This document shows positions 836 through 15,717 of a DNA stretch of 64,000 nt, in pieces. Source of the stretch: Actinomycetota bacterium (GTDB lineage Bacteria > Actinomycetota > Thermoleophilia > Gaiellales > Gaiellaceae); assembly GCA_003132665.1 (NCBI GenBank), contig PKYN01000018.1, positions 41,022-105,021 of the forward strand, in the 5' to 3' direction. The translations under genes were made by a program, and so were the position numbers. The stretch's first letter is position 1; each line of letters begins with the position of its first letter. A model generated the notes under the pieces. That model worked only from the letters and a program-made list of their open reading frames with translations, ran no database searches and was not told where the DNA came from.

Positions 836-1041
836 GTTGCCTCCTAGGTTCGTACTGTTGGCTGCCGTGTCAGTACGGCGCAGCCCATTATGCGGACGTT
901 GGCGGCGTCGCGGCGACGGACGACTCCTCCGAAGCTCGGCGCGGAATCGAAGTGGGAAACGTAGGCAGAAACCGCGATTTCAGAGGTCGGGGTTTGGACG
1001 TCGCATTTTGGTTGTCCGCGTTCACTCTGGAAAACGGGCTT

Positions 1042-1088
1042 TGGAGCTAGGCGGATTCGAACCGCCGACCTACGGATTATGAGTCCGT
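1042..1088 (-). pseudogene. 3' half of a tRNA-Met(CAU)-like gene (att-like remnant, not a complete tRNA)
   Basis: The minus strand reads acgga-ctcataa-tccgt aggtc ggcgg-ttcgaat-ccgcc tagctcc a. That is anticodon arm (CAU), variable loop, T-arm, acceptor 3' strand and discriminator. No matching 5' acceptor strand (ggagcta) or D-arm lies upstream. Confidence 0.6.
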
Positions 1089-1097
1089 CGCCCGCAC

Positions 1098-1124
1098 GAT
1101 GCCCGACGGAATCGAGCTCAAGGG
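1098..1124. repeat. 27-nt direct repeat, copy 2 (orphan piece of transposase coding sequence next to the tRNA-Met half)
   Basis: gatgcccgacggaatcgagctcaaggg matches 56-82 at 25 of 27 positions. The flanks are unrelated. Confidence 0.7.
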
Positions 1125-1711
1125 CCTTCTGTTAGGTCGCGAAGGCGCGGCAGCGGTGTCCAGAACCGCGTGCGGAGTCCGCTGCGCTGGTCCGAACACG
1201 AGCTTCCGAGCGCGAAGCCGCATCGGTCGCGCCGCGACCCGCCTGTTCTGTCTACCGGCCGTCTACCGGGAGGCGGGAATGCGAGTATTTGAGCACCCCG
1301 GATTTGCCTGCCGCGTACCTTCTGATCCACGCGGAGTGCAATCCTCCCTGCGCGGCGTCCGTTAGCCATTCTGAACATCCGGGCCAGTCTCAGACGGCCC
1401 CGCGGGCGAAATACCCTCCTGTATTGCTCCATGTCGTGATAGTGCTGTGACTCCTCCAGAATGAAGCCCCCGGAGAGGAAACAAGCCCCCCCCCCGTCAA
1501 CCGTCGGGCTTCTCGTGCTTCTGATACCTGAGCGGTTTTCGCTCAGCTCTGCGCCTCGTCTCGGCGAAAACGTCTCTTCTACCCTTATCAAGGGATCTTT
1601 CGTCAGGGGTCGTGTCACGCCGTTAAAACGGCCGATAATACAAGGGACAAGAAAATGGCCGGGGCACCGTTGGTGCGGCCCCCGGCCCGGACACAGGAGG
1701 CAGAAACTCCC

Positions 1712-2029
1712 ATGTCAACGCACCATCTTACGTCCGATCTATGGACGCTCCTCGAATCTCCGCCCGTCGGCTGCGAGGCCGTGGCGGATCTCTGGCACTG
1801 GTCCCTCAACTTCGACACCGGCAGGGGGCCGGCCGCGCTGTTCCTGGACCTAATCGGCTACTACACCGACGAGTTCGGCTGCGACCTGTACCCGCACGAG
1901 AAGGCTGGCTATCCGCTACTCGGCTTCGTCGAGCTGGCGAAACTCGGCGCTGCCCTCACGGCGTACGCGGACGATCCGCACGGCGTGCGTTCATTCGTCG
2001 GCGATCTTCTCGAGGCTGAGACTCGATGA
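1712..2029 (+). CDS. Hypothetical small protein coupled to the serine recombinase
   Basis: ATG at 1712 is preceded by aggagg at 1695-1700. The stop overlaps the recombinase start (ATGA at 2026-2029). I recognise no family. Confidence 0.5.
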   Translation: MSTHHLTSDLWTLLESPPVGCEAVADLWHWSLNFDTGRGPAALFLDLIGYYTDEFGCDLYPHEKAGYPLLGFVELAKLGAALTAYADDPHGVRSFVGDLLEAETR

Positions 2030-2742
2030 CGCGCCGACAGACATCCACGGGAGCGCCTCCAGGCGCTCTCCGCGCGGTCCTGTATGGGCGCGTCAGTGTC
2101 TCGAACGGGTCCGACTCGCTCGAGGCGCAGGCGGAGCAATGCCGCGCTTACGCGGAGTCGATCGGCGCAATCATCGCCGAGGAGTACGTAGACGACGGGA
2201 TCTCGGGGGCGAAGGGCGACGACGCGCGGGACGGACTCTCAGGAGCCCTCTCGGCGATCGTAGACGGACGCGCAAACCTTCTCATCGTCCACAGGCTCGA
2301 TCGCCTCGCGAGGGAGCTTCATCTACAAGAAGCGGTTTTAGGCAGGGTGTGGGCTGCGGGAGGACACGTTCACGAAGCCGTCTTCGGCGAGATCCCGCAG
2401 GACGACCCGAGCGACCCTATGCGGACGTTCTGCCGTCAGGTGATGGGTGCCGCTGCGCAGCTCGAACGAGGACTGATTCGCGCTCGGATGCAGGGAGGAC
2501 GGAAGCGCCGTCGAGCTGCCGGCTACCACATAGGAGGGGATCGCCCCTACGGGTACGCGGTGAGTGGGGACGGACGGCTCGAGCACATCGCAGAGGAGCA
2601 AGTCGTCATCCGGCGCATTGTCGAGCTGCGTTCGCAGGACATGCCTTTCCGCGCCATCGGAGAGATCCTCGAGCGCGAGGGACACGGCGCCTGGCACCCC
2701 ATGCGCGTGCGCCGGGTATGGGAGCGCGAACGTCCCGGATGA
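2026..2742 (+). CDS. Small serine recombinase (resolvase/invertase family) with C-terminal HTH
   Basis: 238 aa. The N-terminal catalytic block AVLYGRVSVSNGSDSLEAQ...YVDDGISGAK...LLIVHRLDRLAREL is typical of serine recombinases. Confidence 0.85.
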   Translation: MTRRQTSTGAPPGALRAVLYGRVSVSNGSDSLEAQAEQCRAYAESIGAIIAEEYVDDGISGAKGDDARDGLSGALSAIVDGRANLLIVHRLDRLARELHLQEAVLGRVWAAGGHVHEAVFGEIPQDDPSDPMRTFCRQVMGAAAQLERGLIRARMQGGRKRRRAAGYHIGGDRPYGYAVSGDGRLEHIAEEQVVIRRIVELRSQDMPFRAIGEILEREGHGAWHPMRVRRVWERERPG

Positions 2743-2755
2743 GACCCGACTTAGC

Positions 2756-3049
2756 GAATCATCCGCTCCATGCCCTGACTCACTGAATCATCTCTACGCA
2801 AAGCCTGTCTACGAGGCCGAATCATCGAGGCGGCGCCTAGAGCACTACTCCTAGAGGCTATGCGCATAGCAGCGATCGCGTAGGTAGCAGTAGAGAATAT
2901 GGTGTTTTTCCTGCTTGATGCCGGTTTTCGAGAGGCCTGAAATACGGCATTTCTAGAGCAGATATAGAGCACGCACGACGCCCGCCGTCGAGACTCACGT
3001 CTCGATGTGAGATTGCCGATATGGCATCCGGAGGCGTGGTAAGATTGCC
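2756..3049. promoter_or_regulatory. Repeat-rich A/T-richer spacer: candidate recombination (res-like) and/or operator sites
   Basis: gaatcatc occurs three times (2756, 2785, 2819). There is a perfect 14-bp palindrome gctatgcgcatagc (2857-2870). An 11-nt direct repeat gt(g/a)agattgcc occurs at 3007-3017 and 3039-3049, just upstream of the XRE start. Confidence 0.3.
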
Positions 3050-3075
3050 ACATCAGCAAAGGAGGGAGGGGAAAG

Positions 3076-3420
3076 ATGGATGAGCAGGAGCTTCGGTCGC
3101 TGGTCGGGCGCAGGATTCGCACCGAGCGCAAGGCTTCAGGCTATAACCGCCTCGAGGACTTCGCGAATCGGATTGGGATGGACCCAAGCAACCTCTCGCG
3201 GATCGAGCAGGGGAAGCGCGGGATAGACAGTGTCACGTTGATGCGAATCGCGGACACGCTCGGCGTTCGCATGGACGCGCTCTTCGATCGCGAGAGGGAC
3301 GAGGTCGTCGCCTTCGCTCGCACTGGGTCGCGCGGCCGCGACGAGGTTGTTGACTGGGCCCTTGGGCTTCTTGCGGACATGGAGTTCGCCGAGGCCGAGG
3401 TTGCTCGGCATGGCTGGTGA
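3076..3420 (+). CDS. XRE-family helix-turn-helix transcriptional regulator
   Basis: LVGRRIRTERKASGYNRLEDFANRIGMDPSNLSRIEQGKRGIDSVTLMRIADTLGV is a canonical Cro/C1-type HTH. RBS-like aaggaggga lies upstream. Confidence 0.85.
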   Translation: MDEQELRSLVGRRIRTERKASGYNRLEDFANRIGMDPSNLSRIEQGKRGIDSVTLMRIADTLGVRMDALFDRERDEVVAFARTGSRGRDEVVDWALGLLADMEFAEAEVARHGW

Positions 3421-4234
3421 GGCCTGGCGCGTCGGTGAGACCGCCGCGAAAGCGTTTCACCACGAGCTGGATCTTGTTACGACGGGGGTCGTAGATCTCA
3501 AGGAAGTGATGCGGCTCGCCGGCATTACGTTCGTCGCGCACGACCTCGGTCCCAAGGCCGGAGACGGCCGCTACGTGAAGAAGGGCGGTCGCGCGATGAT
3601 CGTCATCAACACGCACGTCAGGTCGACGGGCCGCGTGCGCTTCACGATCGCGCACGAGATCGGTCACCACCGCCTGCACACAGAGGGCGCGGAGAATGTC
3701 GCGTTCATCGAGGAGCAGGTCGGAGGTGGAGGCAACAAGCCACGCGAAGAGCGGGAGGCGGACGCGTTCGCCGCCTATTTTCTCGCTCCGTACAGATCGT
3801 TGAAGGCGGACGCGGAGAGGATCGGTGATATCAGCGTCGAGAGCGTCGTCGATCTCATGGTCCGATACGGCCTCTCGTTCCAGGCGACGGTTTTCCGTCT
3901 CCACAACAGCCAGCTGATCAACGCAGCGAAGCGGGACGCACTTCTGCGCGACTCGCAGGGACGCGTTGAGGCCGTGCTGAGGCAGAAGGGGGGCTATGCC
4001 GAAGACGACCAGATCTTGGTCGGGGCGGAGCTGCCAACAAGTTTTCGAGAGAACGCCTTCAAGCTCTTCGCGCACGGGGTCATCGATGAGGAGCGGCTCG
4101 CCGAGATGTTGCGGATGCCCCTATCGAAGGCACGGCGTGTTGCGGCCGAGCGCGGCGTCGCTGCACCGGAAGTGCCGGACATCGATGAGGAAGACCTCGC
4201 AGACCTATTCGATGACGCGGCGCCGGGCAACTAG
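3410..4234 (+). CDS. ImmA/IrrE-family zinc metallopeptidase (COG2856-like)
   Basis: HEIGH zinc-binding motif (FTIAHEIGHHRLH). The start overlaps the XRE stop by 11 nt. The longer ORF-track start at 3347 is rejected because it lies inside the XRE gene. Confidence 0.85.
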   Translation: MAGEAWRVGETAAKAFHHELDLVTTGVVDLKEVMRLAGITFVAHDLGPKAGDGRYVKKGGRAMIVINTHVRSTGRVRFTIAHEIGHHRLHTEGAENVAFIEEQVGGGGNKPREEREADAFAAYFLAPYRSLKADAERIGDISVESVVDLMVRYGLSFQATVFRLHNSQLINAAKRDALLRDSQGRVEAVLRQKGGYAEDDQILVGAELPTSFRENAFKLFAHGVIDEERLAEMLRMPLSKARRVAAERGVAAPEVPDIDEEDLADLFDDAAPGN

Positions 4235-4948
4235 ATGTCGCAGGACCCGCTGCGGACCCAGAAGCACCCGGTTTTCCTCGACGCGACGCCGCTTACCCAC
4301 TTCGCGCGGATCGGCGAGCTCGATCTGCTCGGGACATGGCTTCCTGGGTCGTACACAGCTGCCTACGTGATGAAGGACGAGATCCTTGACTGGGTCAAGG
4401 ACTACCCGAGCAACAAGCAGGTGGGGAACGCGACGTGGCTCACAGCACTCCCGGCAGACACGCTCGCCGACGCGAAGCTGATCGCAAGCCTCTCGATCCG
4501 GTTCCCGGCGGGAGGCACCAAGAGCATCGGCGAGCTTCACGTCATCGCGCTGGCGAAGAGGCTCGGCGGAACGGCGATCATCGAGGACCAGCAGGCGCGG
4601 AAGGCGGCCCGATCCAATGAGGCGAAGGTAAAGAGCGTCTACATGGTCTCCATGATCGGCGCGGCGTCTGCGTGCGGCCTTATTTCGGAAAACGAGGCCT
4701 GGGATCTCCAGAGGCGGCTGGAAGTAAGGCGAGAGCGATCGGTCATCCGCTCGACCGATAACAGAGAATTCCGCGAGATGGTCAGATTCATGAAGGAGCT
4801 GCAGCCGCGGTGGGCCGAGTGGCCCAGGTGCCTTCATAACAACGGCCTCGATCTGATCGCGATTGCGGCGAGGAAGCAGGAGCTCGGGGCGTGGCGCGAC
4901 CGATTCAAGCTTCCGCCGCGAAGTACACCTAAGCCTCGGCCGGGCTGA
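4235..4948 (+). CDS. PIN-like domain protein (DUF3368/DUF4411-like), third gene of the XRE-ImmA module
   Basis: The ATG follows the ImmA stop directly (TAG ATG at 4232-4237). N-terminal VFLDATPLTHFARIGELDLL and later GELHVIALAKRLGGTAIIEDQQARKAA resemble PIN-like nucleic-acid-binding proteins. The family assignment is tentative. Confidence 0.5.
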   Translation: MSQDPLRTQKHPVFLDATPLTHFARIGELDLLGTWLPGSYTAAYVMKDEILDWVKDYPSNKQVGNATWLTALPADTLADAKLIASLSIRFPAGGTKSIGELHVIALAKRLGGTAIIEDQQARKAARSNEAKVKSVYMVSMIGAASACGLISENEAWDLQRRLEVRRERSVIRSTDNREFREMVRFMKELQPRWAEWPRCLHNNGLDLIAIAARKQELGAWRDRFKLPPRSTPKPRPG

Positions 4949-5481
4949 GGTTCCGATTCCCCCTACTCAAACCCACAGCGACGTCTGACCGCGCGGGTCG
5001 GTGATTTGTCCGCGCTCGTACGCTGACCAATCGATAGGTCGGGAGCACTGGCTATGGAACTCCCAGCTCTTGGTAGACGTCGGAAATGCGGGCGGAAAAG
5101 GTTACTTTCGGCGCTCGCTCACGCTCGCGCACGTAGACGTACTCCCTCCTCGAGATCGCCCGAGAAGCACCAGACACCGGAACGTTCTCTGTGGCTTGCT
5201 GGTGGGAGCGCACGTCGCCCCCTTTCGGGGAACGACGCGCTGAACCTTGCTGTATGGGTCCCAGCACCTAGAAATTGATCTCTAGTCTCGGCTCAGTCGT
5301 GCCCAGGTCTGTCGCTGCCACGCCGGCCGAAGGCCGATCGCCGAGAGTCGCCTGGCCCGAAGGCCAACAGGACGGTTCTCAATCTGGGAGTCGCAGCTCG
5401 GAGATTTGTAGAGCGGTCTCAACCGCCTCGACTGCTATAGAGCGGGTGACCTAAGAGCTACCCAGTTCGATCAGAACCGCT

Positions 5482-5548
5482 TGTACTCACAGAGTACACG
5501 ATAATTTCGTAAGGCGTGCTTGACGAATCGTCAGTACCGCTTCAAAAT
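5482..5548 (+). promoter_or_regulatory. Candidate promoter with two perfect palindromic operators upstream of the orphan XRE gene
   Basis: tgtactc-aca-gagtaca (5482-5498). tgacga-a-tcgtca (5521-5533) overlaps a ttgacg -35-like hexamer (5520-5525). A caaaat -10-like hexamer lies 17 nt downstream (5543-5548). Confidence 0.35.
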
Positions 5549-5559
5549 GTGGCGAGGCT

Positions 5560-5949
5560 ATGCCACTCTCGCAAGGAAACATCGCAGCGAACGTCCGCCG
5601 ACTCGCGGGTATGCATCTCGTCAGCATGGACAAACTCGCACAATACCTTGAGATGTCCCGTCCGTCCCTACAGGCGATCGTCGCTGTCGAGCCTCATCAC
5701 CGTTCTCTGCCGAAGGCTGAGACCGCCCTAAAGCTTGCTGAGGCGTTCGGGATCTCTCTGAACGCTCTGTACTCCGAGACGGAAGAGTGTCTACGAGAGG
5801 CGATCGAGAACTTCGAGCACGCGCCTATCCGAGAGGTAGTCGAGGCTCCGACTTCAGATCTAGCGCCTGGCCTGACGATGCTGAACGAGCTTGCAGAGTT
5901 CAAGCGAGCGAAGCGGAAAGCGAGCGAACAGAAGAAGCGAAAGACTTAG
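5560..5949 (+). CDS. XRE-family HTH regulator with a basic C-terminal tail
   Basis: NIAANVRRLAGMHLVSMDKLAQYLEMSRPSLQAIV...ALKLAEAFGISLNALY is a Cro/C1-type HTH. The C-terminus is KRAKRKASEQKKRKT. Confidence 0.75.
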   Translation: MPLSQGNIAANVRRLAGMHLVSMDKLAQYLEMSRPSLQAIVAVEPHHRSLPKAETALKLAEAFGISLNALYSETEECLREAIENFEHAPIREVVEAPTSDLAPGLTMLNELAEFKRAKRKASEQKKRKT

Positions 5950-5986
5950 CAGTGTGTTAGATACCCTAGAACCCGCATCACTGCTT

Positions 5987-6059
5987 GGCGAGGTAGCTCA
6001 GTTGGTAGAGCACACGGCTGAAAACCGTGGTGTCGCCGGTTCAATTCCGGCCCTCGCCA
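5987..6059 (+). tRNA. tRNA-Phe (GAA)
   Basis: 73-nt cloverleaf. Acceptor ggcgagg/cctcgcc, D-arm gctc-agttggta-gagc, anticodon arm cacgg-ctGAAaa-ccgtg, T-arm gccgg-ttcaatt-ccggc, discriminator a. Confidence 0.95.
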
Positions 6060-6060
6060 T

Positions 6061-6194
6061 CTCGCTTTCTCGGGCGGGTCTTCGCCCGAGGGCGAAGACC
6101 CTAGCGCCGCTGGCCGCACGTCACTCTACGGAGCCGTGTAGGCGACACTGTCTCCTCCGGTGCCGCACGGCCAGCGACACTCCGAGAAAGCGAG
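6061..6194. other. 134-nt nested inverted-repeat element directly 3' of tRNA-Phe (structured RNA, MITE-like or att-associated)
   Basis: Perfect 13-bp closing stem (6061-6073 ctcgctttctcgg / 6182-6194 ccgagaaagcgag). Perfect 12-bp hairpin (6076-6087 / 6090-6101). Perfect 9-bp stem (6108-6116 / 6168-6176). Inner 5-bp and 4-bp stems. Confidence 0.5.
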
Positions 6195-6335
6195 AGGCGC
6201 AGGGGTTGGAGATGAGCCCCGTGGCCGGTTTGATGGGCGAGGTGCTGAAGTAGCGGTTGTCCGAGAGCGCGTGATGGCCGCGCCCGCGCTTGTCGGTCGC
6301 GGCGGCGTAGGCAGTCGCGAGATATATGAGTGACG

Positions 6336-6773
6336 CTAGCTTGAGCCGTGGTTCCGAACAGCCTCAACGAAGTTCGGTGCCGATATCTTGAGCGCGTCGA
6401 GGAGTTGCTCCAGGGTGAATGGCGGCGACCTCAGATCATTGGCCTGCTCTTCGACAACTTGTCTCGCGCCCAGCGGGTTCATGTTGAAGAGGATCAGCAG
6501 AAACTCATCCGGCTCAATCGCTTCGACACCGAAGTCGGAGCAGTCGTCGGATGGGAAGTGACGCGTGTTGAAGGTGACAACGACCTCGGCTCCAATCGCC
6601 ACGGCGGCAGCTAAAACGTGGCGATCCTTCTCGTCGTTGCACATGGCCGGCTCGAGCTTGCGGATCTTTCGCTCAGGCACAAGCGAACCATCGAAGGCGA
6701 GGTTCATTTGATCGCGCAAATATGCTGCCTGCTTCGGCGTCGCTCCCGCGTCGTAGACGAGATGGCGAACCAT
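6336..6773 (-). CDS. PIN-domain toxin (VapC-like); the conserved N-terminus continues upstream to 6938 without a canonical start
   Basis: DRHVLAAAVAIGAEVVVTFNTRHFP is typical of this PIN family. The same frame stays open upstream to a TAA at 6939-6941. It encodes IAFRAVIDSCALYPFTLRDTLLRLAELELYEPYWSERILDE, the expected first-Asp region. Confidence 0.7.
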   Translation of the reverse strand: MVRHLVYDAGATPKQAAYLRDQMNLAFDGSLVPERKIRKLEPAMCNDEKDRHVLAAAVAIGAEVVVTFNTRHFPSDDCSDFGVEAIEPDEFLLILFNMNPLGARQVVEEQANDLRSPPFTLEQLLDALKISAPNFVEAVRNHGSS

Positions 6774-6942
6774 CTCATCCAGAATGCGCTCGCTCCAGTA
6801 GGGCTCATAAAGCTCGAGCTCTGCGAGACGAAGCAGCGTGTCGCGCAGCGTGAACGGATAGAGAGCGCAGGAATCGATGACGGCACGGAAAGCGATGGGC
6901 TGAGCATAGGCCGGAACCGCGCGTCGTGCGTATTCTCTTTAC

Positions 6943-7425
6943 CTAACGGTAACCGCCCTCGATCTTCTGAGAGGAGCGCGCGAGTTCTCGCAAGTGCTCT
7001 TTCCTAGTGAGAGCTCGGCGCTCGCGATAGGCAATGAGATCCTCGATCCGGATTCGTCTGTGGCTACCAACGCGCTCGAACGGAAGCTCGCCGGCGTCAC
7101 AGAGCTTGACAACGTGCGGGCGCGAGACGTGCAGCAGATCGGCGGCCTGCTGCGTGGTGAGGTGAAGACCGTAGGGCATCAGAGCGATTGTCTGCCCCTT
7201 CGCCATCGCCTCGGCAACGTTCTTGAGTATCTTGAACACAGACGCGGGTAGCTCGACCGGCTTCTCGTCGGGGTTCGGACCGATTAGGAGAGCCCTACCC
7301 CTCTCATGGTAGATCTCCTCGATCCGCTCGCTTAGGCGCTCCAGGCCTGGAGCCTCTTCACGGGTCGGTTGAACGACGTTGTCAGAGAAAGCAGAGGAAG
7401 AAGGAGTCGCTGGCACGGGAACCAC
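6943..7425 (-). CDS. Excisionase/MerR-like HTH DNA-binding protein (putative antitoxin of the PIN gene)
   Basis: LTTQQAADLLHVSRPHVVKLCDAGELPFERVGSHRRIRIEDLIAY is an excisionase-family HTH. It lies immediately upstream of the PIN frame. Confidence 0.7.
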   Translation of the reverse strand: MVPVPATPSSSAFSDNVVQPTREEAPGLERLSERIEEIYHERGRALLIGPNPDEKPVELPASVFKILKNVAEAMAKGQTIALMPYGLHLTTQQAADLLHVSRPHVVKLCDAGELPFERVGSHRRIRIEDLIAYRERRALTRKEHLRELARSSQKIEGGYR

Positions 7426-7542
7426 CTCCTACGCGCATCCTAGCAGTACTCGAAATAAACGCAACATACGAAACAACCGCAATATCGGCATTTCCGTCCT
7501 AGGCTTTAGTGAAACCGAGCGCGATTGAGCAATCAGTTCTCT

Positions 7543-10697
<3,155 letters not shown>

Positions 10698-10701
<4 letters not shown>

Positions 10702-11350
10702 TCCGCCTCAGGCTCCTCTTTGGGTGCAGCTAACTCTCCGCATAAGCGCTCGCCCATTTCCACATAGGCGTCGTGATCAACCGAATACAGCACTTCGCTC
10801 GCGTAGTAGCTGCTCTCTCCGATATCTAGCATCTCGCACTCGCGATCGATCGCGCGGTCGTACTCGCTATCGGGGTCAGGCAAAGTTGGCGGCGAGTTTT
10901 CGAAAACTGCCTGCGCTAGCCTCTCTCCGGCGTTAGAAACCTCGAAAAGGACCGAGAACACCCACAGAGCGGCTTCTCTGACCAACGCCAAGACGTTTTT
11001 CTCGGGAATACCCTTTTGACCTCCGTGGTATTGCTCGTTTCTATGACCGTGAGCCCAAACGATATGGCTCTTTTCAACCTCCCACGTCAGGCCTCTATTA
11101 ACAAGCTCCGCTTCGAGGAAGTCGAGTTTGGAGTGGTAGTTCGCGAGCCATCGCTCTACATCACTCTTTTGGTACTCGCGGTTTCCGCGTTGGATCGGGT
11201 TCAGCGTTAGATAAGTTGTAATCGCAATTTCAATAGCGTCATCGAAGCTAATAAGCGCGATGCGCCGATCGAAATCTTCGCCGTCGATGAGATGACACTC
11301 GGCGTGAACGAGGAGCTCGAACGGACCATTCGCCCAGGGAGGAAGAGAGT

Positions 11351-11354
<4 letters not shown>
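10698..11354 (-). CDS. Hypothetical protein embedded in the hsd operon; HEPN-like Rx4H motif
   Basis: 218-aa ORF with a GTG start overlapping the hsdS stop (GTGA) and a stop overlapping the hsdR start (ATGA). HGHRNEQYH (R105-H110, nt 11025-11042) fits the HEPN Rx4-6H signature. The C-terminal tail is acidic. Composition is visibly more A/T-rich than the neighbours. Confidence 0.75.
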
Positions 11355-14177
<2,823 letters not shown>

Positions 14178-14319
14178 CTGCTCCTGGCCTCCGGTGGTTG
14201 GTGAGGGGGCGCGTCAGAACGCGTTGCCTAAAGGTTCGCCTTGATTCTGACGTCCTTTGCGGCCAGGTCTCATCCTATGACGCCTTGAGCGAACGCGAAG
14301 AGCGACCGATGACACTGGA

Positions 14320-14952
14320 ATGCCCTACGACGTAGGTAAGCGCCCGGCGGCATGGCTCTCGCGGCAAGTCGCTAGACGGAAATCTCGGATGTTATTGCTT
14401 GCTGCTGCGGGAGCGGCGATGGTCGCGCTGCTAGCGGCTTTGATTCTTCTTCACCAGCAAACCTTCGCTCTCATCGTCTCCATAGCAGTAATCCCGGTTT
14501 CCGTAGCCGTCTGGCACCTACCCGACAAGCTGGGTGATGATCTCGATAACTGGTCACTCGGCGAGAGAGCCGAGCTCTCGATCGGCGAACTCTTGAACGA
14601 GCTTCGCAACGAGGGCTTCATCGTCATGCACGATATCGAGCAAGAATACGAAGGCAACATCGACCACCTCGTCAGTGGCCCGACTGGTGTCTTCATGATC
14701 GAATCCAAGGCGAGAAGGTATCCGGACGAAGCGCCGAAGAAAGCGAAACGGCAGGCCAAGAAGCTCCGTAACGAACTCGTCGCGGAATGGGTTGAACCGT
14801 TGATCTGCATCAGCAACCGCGATGGGAAGCCTTTCATGCACGGAGGGGTTTGGATCGTCCCAAAGCAGCACCTCCTCGAATGGATCCGAGCCCAGCACAG
14901 AGAAACCGTTCCGTTCGAGCGCCTGGCCCGCTTCGCGGACAGCCTGCCTTAG
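14320..14952 (+). CDS. NERD (nuclease-related domain) protein with N-terminal transmembrane segments
   Basis: GERAELSIGELLNELRNEGFIVMHDI...NIDHLVSGPTGVFMIESKA matches the NERD pattern. Hydrophobic N-terminal helices are present. Confidence 0.8.
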   Translation: MPYDVGKRPAAWLSRQVARRKSRMLLLAAAGAAMVALLAALILLHQQTFALIVSIAVIPVSVAVWHLPDKLGDDLDNWSLGERAELSIGELLNELRNEGFIVMHDIEQEYEGNIDHLVSGPTGVFMIESKARRYPDEAPKKAKRQAKKLRNELVAEWVEPLICISNRDGKPFMHGGVWIVPKQHLLEWIRAQHRETVPFERLARFADSLP

Positions 14953-15717
14953 CTAAGAGTCGATACCTCGGCGCTCAAGCTCACGTGGACTCGCAACGAG
15001 AACCTCAACTGCCTCCGGCCAAGCATGCTTGTCGCGCTCCTCTTCGAACAGGTTTTCATCATCAACCACAAGAACAGCGGCGATGAGGCAGTGGCCACGT
15101 TCCACGTGGCGCGCGAGGCGCGTGGCGTCGGCGACGACGGCGTCGACCTTGAGCAGGTGGTCGAAGCGCCAGGTCTTCGAGCACCCAGCGGGAAAGTACT
15201 TACCCTCGAGGAAGAGCTCGTGACGGTGCGTCATGAAGCGCTGTTGCGATGTCTCGTCCTCGACGAAATCGAGCAGGTTCGAGACGACCAAGTCAATACG
15301 CTCCCGCTTGTCGGTTGCCGCGTCGAAATCGGCGAAACTCCAGCGCGCGACCGGCAGTTCGAAGTGAACCTGGTATGGAAACTCGCGCTCAAGTTCAAGG
15401 GCCATTCGAAAGACACAATCACCCTCGGTCCATAAGGTTGGTCCTTTGTAGTTGCGCGGGTCGGAGTAGTCATCCCAGCCGTAGTAGTGATGACCGCCGT
15501 AACGCGCGTAGATCTCCAGAAAACGGCCAAACGCCGCCTCCAAAGAGGTACGAATCGCGCGTGCTTCTACCGTCACGAGAAACCGACCATAGCGCCGCTC
15601 GCGATGCGCGGTACCGTTACCGCGCCTTCTAGCCGTCAGTACCGACCTACCCCCCGCGTAGATTTTCTCGAGGTATCGAGCAGGCCAATGCCAAACCACC
15701 CCGCAACACCCGACCAC
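14953..15717 (-). CDS. Hypothetical protein with a PD-(D/E)xK-like motif arrangement (start uncertain)
   Basis: ALELEREF ... RIDLVVSN ... HELFLEGKYF fits the E / D / ExK pattern. The listed ATG would overlap the aquaporin start. An internal GTG (FL-V-TVEARAIR) is an alternative start. No family recognised. Confidence 0.45.
   Translation of the reverse strand: MVGCCGVVWHWPARYLEKIYAGGRSVLTARRRGNGTAHRERRYGRFLVTVEARAIRTSLEAAFGRFLEIYARYGGHHYYGWDDYSDPRNYKGPTLWTEGDCVFRMALELEREFPYQVHFELPVARWSFADFDAATDKRERIDLVVSNLLDFVEDETSQQRFMTHRHELFLEGKYFPAGCSKTWRFDHLLKVDAVVADATRLARHVERGHCLIAAVLVVDDENLFEEERDKHAWPEAVEVLVASPRELERRGIDS

Follow-up and report, generated by a model that had tools for sequence, protein, structure and literature searches.

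Organization of the cassette

The window analyzed here is a 64,000-nucleotide (nt) stretch of DNA from an Actinomycetota bacterium of the family Gaiellaceae (GenBank assembly GCA_003132665.1, contig PKYN01000018.1, positions 41,022 to 105,021 of the forward strand), and the subject of this work is a cassette of three genes packed without a spacer on its + strand at 3076–4948. The first gene (3076–3420; ATG at 3076, TGA at 3418–3420) encodes an XRE-family repressor of 114 amino acids (aa), the second (3410–4234) a 274-aa ImmA/IrrE/CapP-like M78 zinc metallopeptidase, referred to below as ImmA, and the third (4235–4948, gene 3) a 237-aa PIN-like predicted nuclease. The TAG stop codon of ImmA at 4232–4234 is followed at once by the gene 3 ATG at 4235. 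The ImmA open reading frame (ORF) contains further in-frame start codons 5' of ATG 3410, the earliest being TTG 3347. Use of ATG 3410 produces an 11-nt overlap with the XRE gene, and an overlap of this length was found in 7 of the 11 cassettes with a readable junction (the window and the homologous loci L007, L012, L017, L021, L028 and L030). ATG 3410 was assigned as the ImmA start because the 11-nt overlap recurs in these six diverged cassettes. The cassette is a real, self-contained, three-gene unit of approximately 2 kb spanning approximately 3013–5011.

A first-pass annotation of the same DNA, made by reading the sequence, had described three same-strand genes lacking intergenic space, an 11-nt overlap of the XRE stop with the ImmA start, an ImmA TAG directly followed by the gene 3 ATG, and an intact HEIGH motif in ImmA. 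All of these coordinates were borne out, the HEIGH motif lying at residues 82–86 (nt 3653–3667). Its three family assignments and its proposal that the genes form one functional unit are likewise supported by the fold, the acidic tetrad and the linkage to M78 peptidases, whose helix-turn-helix (HTH) domain may be separate or fused, that are presented below.

Gene 3 encodes a predicted PIN-type nuclease

When gene 3 was used alone to search Pfam, NCBIfam and the PDB nothing significant was obtained, the only Pfam signal being a sub-threshold match to PIN-TPR-GreABC. Such single-sequence searches were nearly silent, and the identity of gene 3 was resolved by profiles and structure alone. An AlphaFold model based on a 54-sequence alignment had a mean predicted local distance difference test score (pLDDT) of 94.9 and a predicted template modeling (pTM) score of 0.90; a model from only 8 sequences was poor (pLDDT 65). 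The leading Foldseek matches of the model in the PDB were VapC-type PIN toxins and other PIN proteins, with template modeling (TM) scores per target of 0.60–0.68 and a probability of 1.00, and a fold search of BFVD with gene 3 returned generic PIN matches only. The PIN domain occupies approximately residues 12–150 and contains an acidic tetrad consisting of D16 (4280–4282), E49 (4379–4381), E100 (4532–4534) and D118 (4586–4588). The 54 sequences, with identity down to 23%, all share G99-E100, and D16, E49 and D118 show at least 90% conservation. In a profile comparison against the PDB the acidic positions coincide with the D, E, G-D and T-N-D motifs found in AF0591 (1o4w), a PIN protein. Gene 3 had been called PIN-like by eye in the first-pass annotation, which proposed profile and structure analysis of 4235–4948 for a PIN fold and an acidic tetrad; both were found, and the by-eye call was upheld by structure prediction and fold search. 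By model and alignment, gene 3 is a PIN-type protein with an intact D-E-E-D site and predicted nuclease activity.

The PIN domain is followed by a C-terminal extension of four confidently predicted helices (approximately residues 150–225) with a conserved WPxCLHNNGLD motif, for which no database match was found. A word-indexed search with gene 3 retrieved only eight close relatives. When 1.84 billion cluster representatives were searched exhaustively with a profile, 151 were retrieved at E<=1e-3, 44 of them reaching E<=1e-10. With 151 representatives among 1.84 billion, the family is rare. DUF3368 (= COG2405, PF11848) is listed for all gene 3 homologues in the precomputed Pfam column. In a scan with PF11848 the window protein gave no match at E<=0.1 and 7 of the 54 family members matched at E<=1 (best 1.2e-5). 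The precomputed matches hint at a placement of gene 3 in COG2405/DUF3368, which the scan did not reproduce, the window protein reaching neither the DUF3368 nor the PIN thresholds of Pfam. COG2405 proteins usually have as partner a UPF0175/COG2886 antitoxin or an HTH–DUF955 protein; in the loci examined the partner of gene 3 relatives was always an M78 (= DUF955) peptidase with an HTH, and no UPF0175 partner was seen. Among PADLOC models gene 3 matched PDC-S70 at 1e-8, with relatives reaching 1.9e-17, and for gene 3 and five relatives no RmrT model was matched, PDC-S70 being the only hit. The PDC-S70 system comprises one gene and has been described as a candidate PIN nuclease (PMC12988326).

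The XRE repressor and the ImmA peptidase

The XRE protein matches HTH_3 at 1.4e-10, with the HTH at approximately residues 10–72, and matches the PADLOC models capH (4.3e-7), RmrA (N-terminal part, 2e-6) and PDC-M69A (1e-6). In the PDB it is most similar to chain 7t8i, an entry deposited as an Xre-family (ICEBs1-type) regulator. An alignment of ten homologues revealed a conserved [FYHL]-A-R-x-G motif in the C-terminal part, corresponding to F80–G84 (nt 3313–3327) of the window protein, followed by a conserved Trp. DdrO is cleaved at L106|R107, and A81|R82 of XRE is by analogy a reasonable candidate scissile bond, since CapH and DdrO are cut at a similar motif. The cleavage site of CapH is F82|R83 (bioRxiv 10.64898/2026.05.16.725639).

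ImmA matches Peptidase_M78 at 3.1e-22, and in addition to the HEIGH motif it has E114 as a third zinc ligand, by alignment with the corresponding ligand of CapP. The nearest solved structure is CapP 7t5t (3.5e-8), this match spanning only residues 63–163, the peptidase domain. PADLOC matches were to capP (5.3e-26), to RmrA (up to 7.6e-17, some over residues 10–255) and, at full length, to PDC-M69B (5.4e-16). The protein has no cysteine and therefore no CapP-type cysteine switch. The C-terminal region of ImmA is homologous to that of RmrA, and alignment of 13 homologues identified a conserved acidic tail, PExPD-[FYI]D...LL, at residues 253–267 (nt 4166–4210). By sequence, ImmA thus looks like RmrA without its HTH.

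The promoter region and putative operators

Immediately upstream of the XRE gene lies an 11-nt direct repeat on the + strand, with copies at 3007–3017 (GTGAGATTGCC) and 3039–3049 (GTAAGATTGCC). These are the only exact matches to GT[G/A]AGATTGCC in the 64 kb, with approximately 0.06 expected by a rough estimate. The repeat had previously been put forward as a possible operator; it is real and positioned as described, and is better regarded as the left halves of two palindromic operators. The first of these, the putative operator O1 (TTGCCGATATGGCAT, 3013–3027), is an imperfect 15-bp TTGC-N7-GCAA inverted repeat whose left half-site is the 3' end of the first repeat copy, and the second, the putative operator O2 (TTGCCACATCAGCAA, 3045–3059), is a perfect 15-bp TTGC-N7-GCAA palindrome. 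O1 is located approximately 50–60 nt 5' of the XRE start on the presumed -35 region. The second repeat copy includes a presumptive -10-like TAAGAT (3040–3045, fitting TANNNT), so that O2 overlaps the -10/transcription start region, and it abuts the Shine-Dalgarno sequence AAGGAGG (3059–3065), an arrangement that would be typical of autorepression. Downstream, 37 nt past the gene 3 stop, a hairpin with a T-rich tail (4985–5011, + strand) that matches the terminator consensus likely represents the end of the operon.

The homologous locus L007 has perfect palindromes at both operator positions, with spacers that differ from those of the window: the O1 counterpart, identically placed, is a perfect TTGCCGATTTAGCAA, and the O2 counterpart is TTGCGAGAACAGCAA, in which the half-sites are kept and the spacer is changed. 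L007 has TAACCT where the window has the -10-like TAAGAT. In the more distant locus L012 a CTTGC-N7-GCAAG palindrome is present 46 nt 5' of the XRE gene. Two one-mismatch matches to TTGC-N7-GCAA elsewhere in the window, one at 5560–5574 exactly on the start codon of an orphan HTH gene (ATGCCACTCTCGCAA) and one at 3117–3131 within the XRE coding region, are probably due to chance, as the window-wide count of such matches equals expectation.

Conservation and linkage in homologous loci

Every homologous locus that could be fetched was inspected and gene order was tallied by tblastn, giving approximately 24 independent loci in which PIN identity falls to approximately 30% and the flanks differ. 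All 13 loci with enough upstream DNA carried the genes in the order XRE, ImmA, PIN, and in the loci with short upstream sequence ImmA was directly 5' of PIN (5/5). Gene junctions were tight throughout 12 further diverged cassettes, the extremes being a 23-nt overlap and a 6-nt gap. Six distant relatives of the 169–191 aa class (P0052, P0059, P0070, P0038, P0079 and P0009) all follow an M78 peptidase. In four of the six (P0038, P0052, P0059 and P0070) the partner is a fused HTH–peptidase of 374–398 aa that matches RmrA hidden Markov models (HMMs) at 1e-20 to 1e-27, and the partners of P0079 (187 aa) and P0009 (191 aa) are split. Gene 3 homologues were thus linked to an M78 peptidase with an HTH in all sampled loci, which answers the co-occurrence check that the first-pass annotation had proposed. 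The idea that the PIN extension goes strictly with a split XRE/ImmA pair was ruled out by P0079 and P0009, which are short yet split.

Sister-clade copies, with 30–35% PIN identity, were found in actinobacterial metagenome-assembled genomes (MAGs) assigned to Gaiellales, Solirubrobacterales and 'Actinomycetes' and in metagenome contigs. A genome scan with close-family motifs found no loci and a scan with the sister-clade alignment found five actinobacterial MAG loci. In L018 (4183–4918), from a Solirubrobacterales MAG, ImmA appears split into two overlapping ORFs of 134 and 155 aa, reflecting either a frameshift or an assembly error, and XRE and PIN are intact. L004, considered as a different upstream context, was dismissed as a shorter contig of the same locus.

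The flanking genes of the cassette vary between loci. The neighbors of L007 (78% PIN identity) are HipBA, an IS1595 transposase and AbiEii, those of L012 (56% PIN identity) are a divergent BilABCD operon and an integrase, with the cassette intact in both, and type ISP restriction–modification genes and a Panacea-domain protein adjoin another homologous cassette. Nucleotide similarity between the window and L007 is confined to 3013–4927, running from O1 through gene 3, with unrelated sequence on either side; the cassette is considered a mobile unit because similarity ends at the operator and gene 3 in this way. Judged from these comparisons, the three genes are one inherited, mobile unit residing in defence islands. 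The extent of the L007 similarity also excludes from the cassette the serine recombinase gene at 2026–2742 (+ strand; Resolvase, 2.5e-27), which ends 333 nt 5' of XRE. The first-pass annotation had placed the module next to a serine recombinase, and the recombinase is present at that location; by this comparison it is a neighbor outside the conserved cassette and no part of it.

Relatives of gene 3 were absent from annotated phage and plasmid records and from IMG/VR contigs, and with none in these phage, plasmid and viral-contig sets a phage or plasmid origin is unsupported.

Relationship to described systems

A module of HTH, COG2856 peptidase and PIN is not new, having been predicted in 2009 and again in 2017, and the window cassette fits this type. 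COG2856–Xre proteins were reported to be strongly linked to PIN and RelE toxins and a three-component toxin–antitoxin (TA) system was proposed (Makarova 2009; PMC2701414). Subsequently COG2405, DUF4411 and PIN_14/20/26 proteins were described as co-transcribed with HTH and DUF955 domains, standalone HTH variants included, with a logic in which the protease cuts the Xre repressor or antitoxin and the PIN toxin becomes active (Matelska 2017; PMC5499597). The window operon likewise combines these three functions, and the logic proposed for it is the same; however, the published systems, which are predictions only, mostly have a fused HTH–peptidase whereas the window HTH is encoded by a separate gene, and the window PIN belongs to a divergent, rare branch with an extra helical C-terminal extension of approximately 75 residues. 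The cassette adds to this module type a rare, split-gene actinobacterial example with a distinctive PIN extension. No experimental dissection of the HTH, COG2856 and PIN design with a PIN effector was found in the literature, the design having stood as a prediction since 2009. With its repressor and protease encoded by separate genes, its recognizable putative operators, and both a candidate site of cleavage and an intact predicted nuclease site, the cassette offers a compact model for asking how M78 switches gate a toxin, how far control is transcriptional or post-translational, and what signal is sensed in Actinomycetota. In other respects it is an unremarkable part of a defence island.

The closest characterized systems are RosmerTA and CapH/CapP, and by analogy the cassette most likely works like these. 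The name RosmerTA was given to an HTH–peptidase paired with a toxin, for which phage defence was shown (Millman 2022; bioRxiv 10.1101/2022.05.11.491447), and the NetFlax study paired ImmA-domain antitoxins with PIN-like toxins (Ernits 2023; PMC10440598). RosmerTA defends against phage, and a delta-rmrA derivative could not be transformed, indicating that RmrA acts as an antitoxin (bioRxiv 10.1101/2022.05.11.491447; PMC10440598). Shared with RosmerTA are the matches of both window regulators to RmrA HMMs (2e-6 for XRE and 7.6e-17 for ImmA), the fused RmrA-like proteins that some gene 3 relatives follow, and a defence-island setting. Unlike RmrA, which is one polypeptide, the window has XRE (114 aa) and ImmA (274 aa), and gene 3 matches no RmrT model; the characterized RmrT toxins are unrelated to it, that of Kita for example depolarizing the membrane. 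The split RmrA and the lack of an RmrT match place the cassette outside a strict definition of RosmerTA.

CapH/CapP, which regulates CBASS and other immune operons and was worked out by Lau 2022 (bioRxiv 10.1101/2022.04.27.489752) and Calloji 2026 (bioRxiv 10.64898/2026.05.16.725639), gives the best sequence matches for both window regulators and has the same arrangement of an XRE gene beside an M78 peptidase gene. In CapP a groove for ssDNA is formed by a central HTH-like domain and a C-terminal GAF domain, and cleavage is stimulated by ssDNA. The XRE proteins are of similar size, with the hydrophobic-Arg motif equally far from the HTH as F82|R83 of CapH, and the L012 cassette, the sole copy so arranged, is divergent from a Bil operon. 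In contrast to CapH/CapP the window effector is co-directional and downstream in the same operon, the upstream resolvase gene also being on the + strand, and window ImmA lacks the cysteine-switch loop, which is present in approximately one third of CapP proteins. An effector in the same operon and no cysteine switch put the cassette outside a strict definition of CapH/CapP as well. In L012 (1922–4853) the 136-nt intergenic region shared by the cassette and BilABCD, which specifies ubiquitin-like conjugation, holds the CTTGC-N7-GCAAG palindrome, and divergence of this kind is the arrangement reported for CapH/CapP-regulated operons.

Similarities to other systems are more general. ImmR/ImmA of ICEBs1 and DdrO/IrrE (PprI, Deinococcus) also combine an XRE repressor with a COG2856/M78 protein carrying HExxH and a logic of damage-induced cleavage, but control excision or a DNA-repair regulon, whereas here the invariant partner is a PIN protein and the cassette occurs in unrelated contexts. 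With type II TA operons the cassette shares overlapping genes, promoter palindromes, unrelated flanks in defence islands and a presumed autoregulation. Gene 3 matches PDC-S70 and the XRE and ImmA proteins match PDC-M69A and PDC-M69B, respectively; PADLOC lists these as separate unvalidated candidates whereas here they form one co-inherited operon. Defence finders thus split this operon into PDC-S70 and PDC-M69, and the link to RosmerTA is missed.

A proposed switch and alternative explanations

Proteins of the ImmA/IrrE/CapP group cleave XRE partners (PMC2701414; PMC5499597; bioRxiv 10.1101/2022.04.27.489752). Taking this together with the observed order and coupling of the genes, the assigned families and folds, the conserved catalytic residues and operators, and the linkage, we infer the following scheme for repression, signal, cleavage, substrate and phenotype. 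XRE dimers would bind the two TTGC-N7-GCAA operators over a single promoter and keep the translationally coupled operon at a low level. A stress or infection cue would activate the M78 peptidase, a CapP/IrrE/ImmA relative without a cysteine switch, and by analogy with CapP and PprI/IrrE this cue could be single-stranded DNA arising from DNA damage or phage replication. Active ImmA would then cut XRE in its C-terminal dimerization part, probably at A81|R82, and with repression lost the PIN level would rise and the D-E-E-D site would cleave RNA, leading to growth arrest or aborted infection. The cassette would on this scheme be an autonomous, horizontally mobile stress/defence switch resembling a split RosmerTA or a CapH/CapP pair with a PIN effector, a reading to which we assign a probability of roughly 60%.

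Several observations weigh against such a transcriptional switch. The PIN gene lies in one transcription unit with the genes for its repressor and protease, whereas CapH/CapP genes are normally divergent from the operon that they control; as a consequence, basal PIN would be made without an obvious neutralizer, which transcription alone explains poorly. The coupling of ImmA to PIN and the acidic ImmA tail hint at direct protein contact. Matches to TTGC-N7-GCAA that allow one mismatch are not significantly more frequent in the window than expected (20 found, 19 expected), so that the case for the operators is made by position and cross-locus conservation. The activating signal is taken purely from analogy. 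The window sequence occurs in peat metagenomes, and the peat metatranscriptome contigs of the same study contain none of the cassette region.

The strongest alternative, which we regard as possible if distinctly less probable, is a TA system acting at the protein level in the RosmerTA sense, where ImmA, possibly via its tail, or XRE would bind and neutralize PIN, a trigger would free PIN by proteolysis or dissociation, and transcriptional autoregulation would be secondary. Translational coupling of ImmA and PIN in every cassette and co-transcription of PIN with the regulators are consistent with this, as are the conserved PExPD-[FYI]D...LL tail, the homology of the ImmA C-terminal region to the antitoxin RmrA, and the occurrence of gene 3 relatives behind fused RmrA-like proteins. 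However, for the RosmerTA pair of Kita no complex was predicted by AlphaFold and neutralization was incomplete (PMC10440598), and the operator pair and the CapH-like cleavage motif of XRE argue for a transcriptional layer. A transcriptional switch and neutralization at the protein level are compatible and may well operate together. A further, rather unlikely extension would have the M78 peptidase restrain PIN via the acidic tail, or process the PIN extension, while XRE/ImmA also co-regulates an adjacent immune operon such as Bil in L012. If true, the cassette would combine a sensor, an antitoxin and an island-level regulator, in which a single protease would free a nuclease and also derepress the defences beside it.

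It is improbable that PIN is a zymogen from which the M78 peptidase removes the helical extension (approximately residues 150–237), leaving XRE as a transcription factor only. The extension is confidently folded and conserved and matches no known domain, and effectors activated by protease sensors of the same operon are reported to be a growing class (cited in the discussion of bioRxiv 10.64898/2026.05.16.725639). Against this, the relatives of 187–191 aa without most of the extension still lie behind split or fused M78 peptidases, showing that the extension is not needed for the partnership; the studied M78/COG2856 relatives all cut an HTH partner, and the PIN linker has no evident [hydrophobic]-A-R-x-G-like motif.

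Immunity of a mobile element of the ImmR/ImmA type, with the serine recombinase or excision genes as the target and PIN as a passenger, appears very improbable. In ICEBs1 the immR, immA and int genes are in one operon, and the resolvase gene 333 nt upstream of the window cassette, the integrase beside L012, the IS1595 transposase beside L007, and the tRNA-Phe gene and tRNA-like remnant that flank the region are in keeping with such a function. However, the conserved unit comprises only the operator and the three genes, the recombinases are of different types, lie on different sides and strands and are missing from several loci, and every sampled locus has PIN as the third partner, with no PIN loss seen. 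Least credible is that gene 3 encodes a PIN-like protein without catalytic activity, which would bind nucleic acids or act as a regulator and have no toxin function. Loss of active-site residues in some COG2405 members (PMC5499597), a Glu in the G-E motif in place of Asp as the third acidic residue of gene 3 and the weak Pfam PIN matches could be cited for this reading, but it is at odds with the at least 90% conservation of all four acidic positions and their alignment to the AF0591 motifs.

Genomic context of the cassette

The cassette is located within a lower-GC island at approximately 1040–15000. At its left edge a tRNA-like match at 1042–1103 (- strand) scored 29.8 bits, a weak value just over the gathering score, and was not called by ARAGORN. 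The sequence looks like a tRNA in its anticodon arm (CAT), T-arm and CCA end but lacks a proper 5' half, and may be an attachment-site remnant. An ORF of 124 aa with no Pfam match (1655–2029, + strand) shares 4 nt (2026–2029) with the beginning of the recombinase gene and is also found in other contigs of the locus.

Downstream of the cassette, a full-length match to the Rfam EGFOA RNA model (5285–5393, - strand; 58.3 bits, gathering score 37.7) is situated between gene 3 and the orphan HTH gene (5560–5949), approximately 600 nt before tRNA-Phe. The EGFOA RNA is outside the conserved cassette, the L007 and L012 copies being without it. The tRNA-Phe gene (GAA; 5986–6061, + strand) is mid-island, separating the cassette from a VapC-like pair and the restriction–modification genes. 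The VapC-like pair consists of a gene for an HTH_17/excisionase-type DNA-binding protein (6943–7425, - strand), which precedes a gene for a PIN_3/VapC50-like protein (6336–6773, - strand; RSP_2648-family PIN, 6.9e-17), and this region (6336–7425) represents a second PIN module unrelated to the gene 3 cassette. It is followed by a type I restriction–modification operon on the - strand, consisting of hsdR (7543–10701), hsdS (11351–12631) and hsdM (12615–14177), with an unannotated 218-aa gene (10698–11354, - strand) wedged between hsdR and hsdS, and by a NERD-domain gene (14320–14952, + strand).

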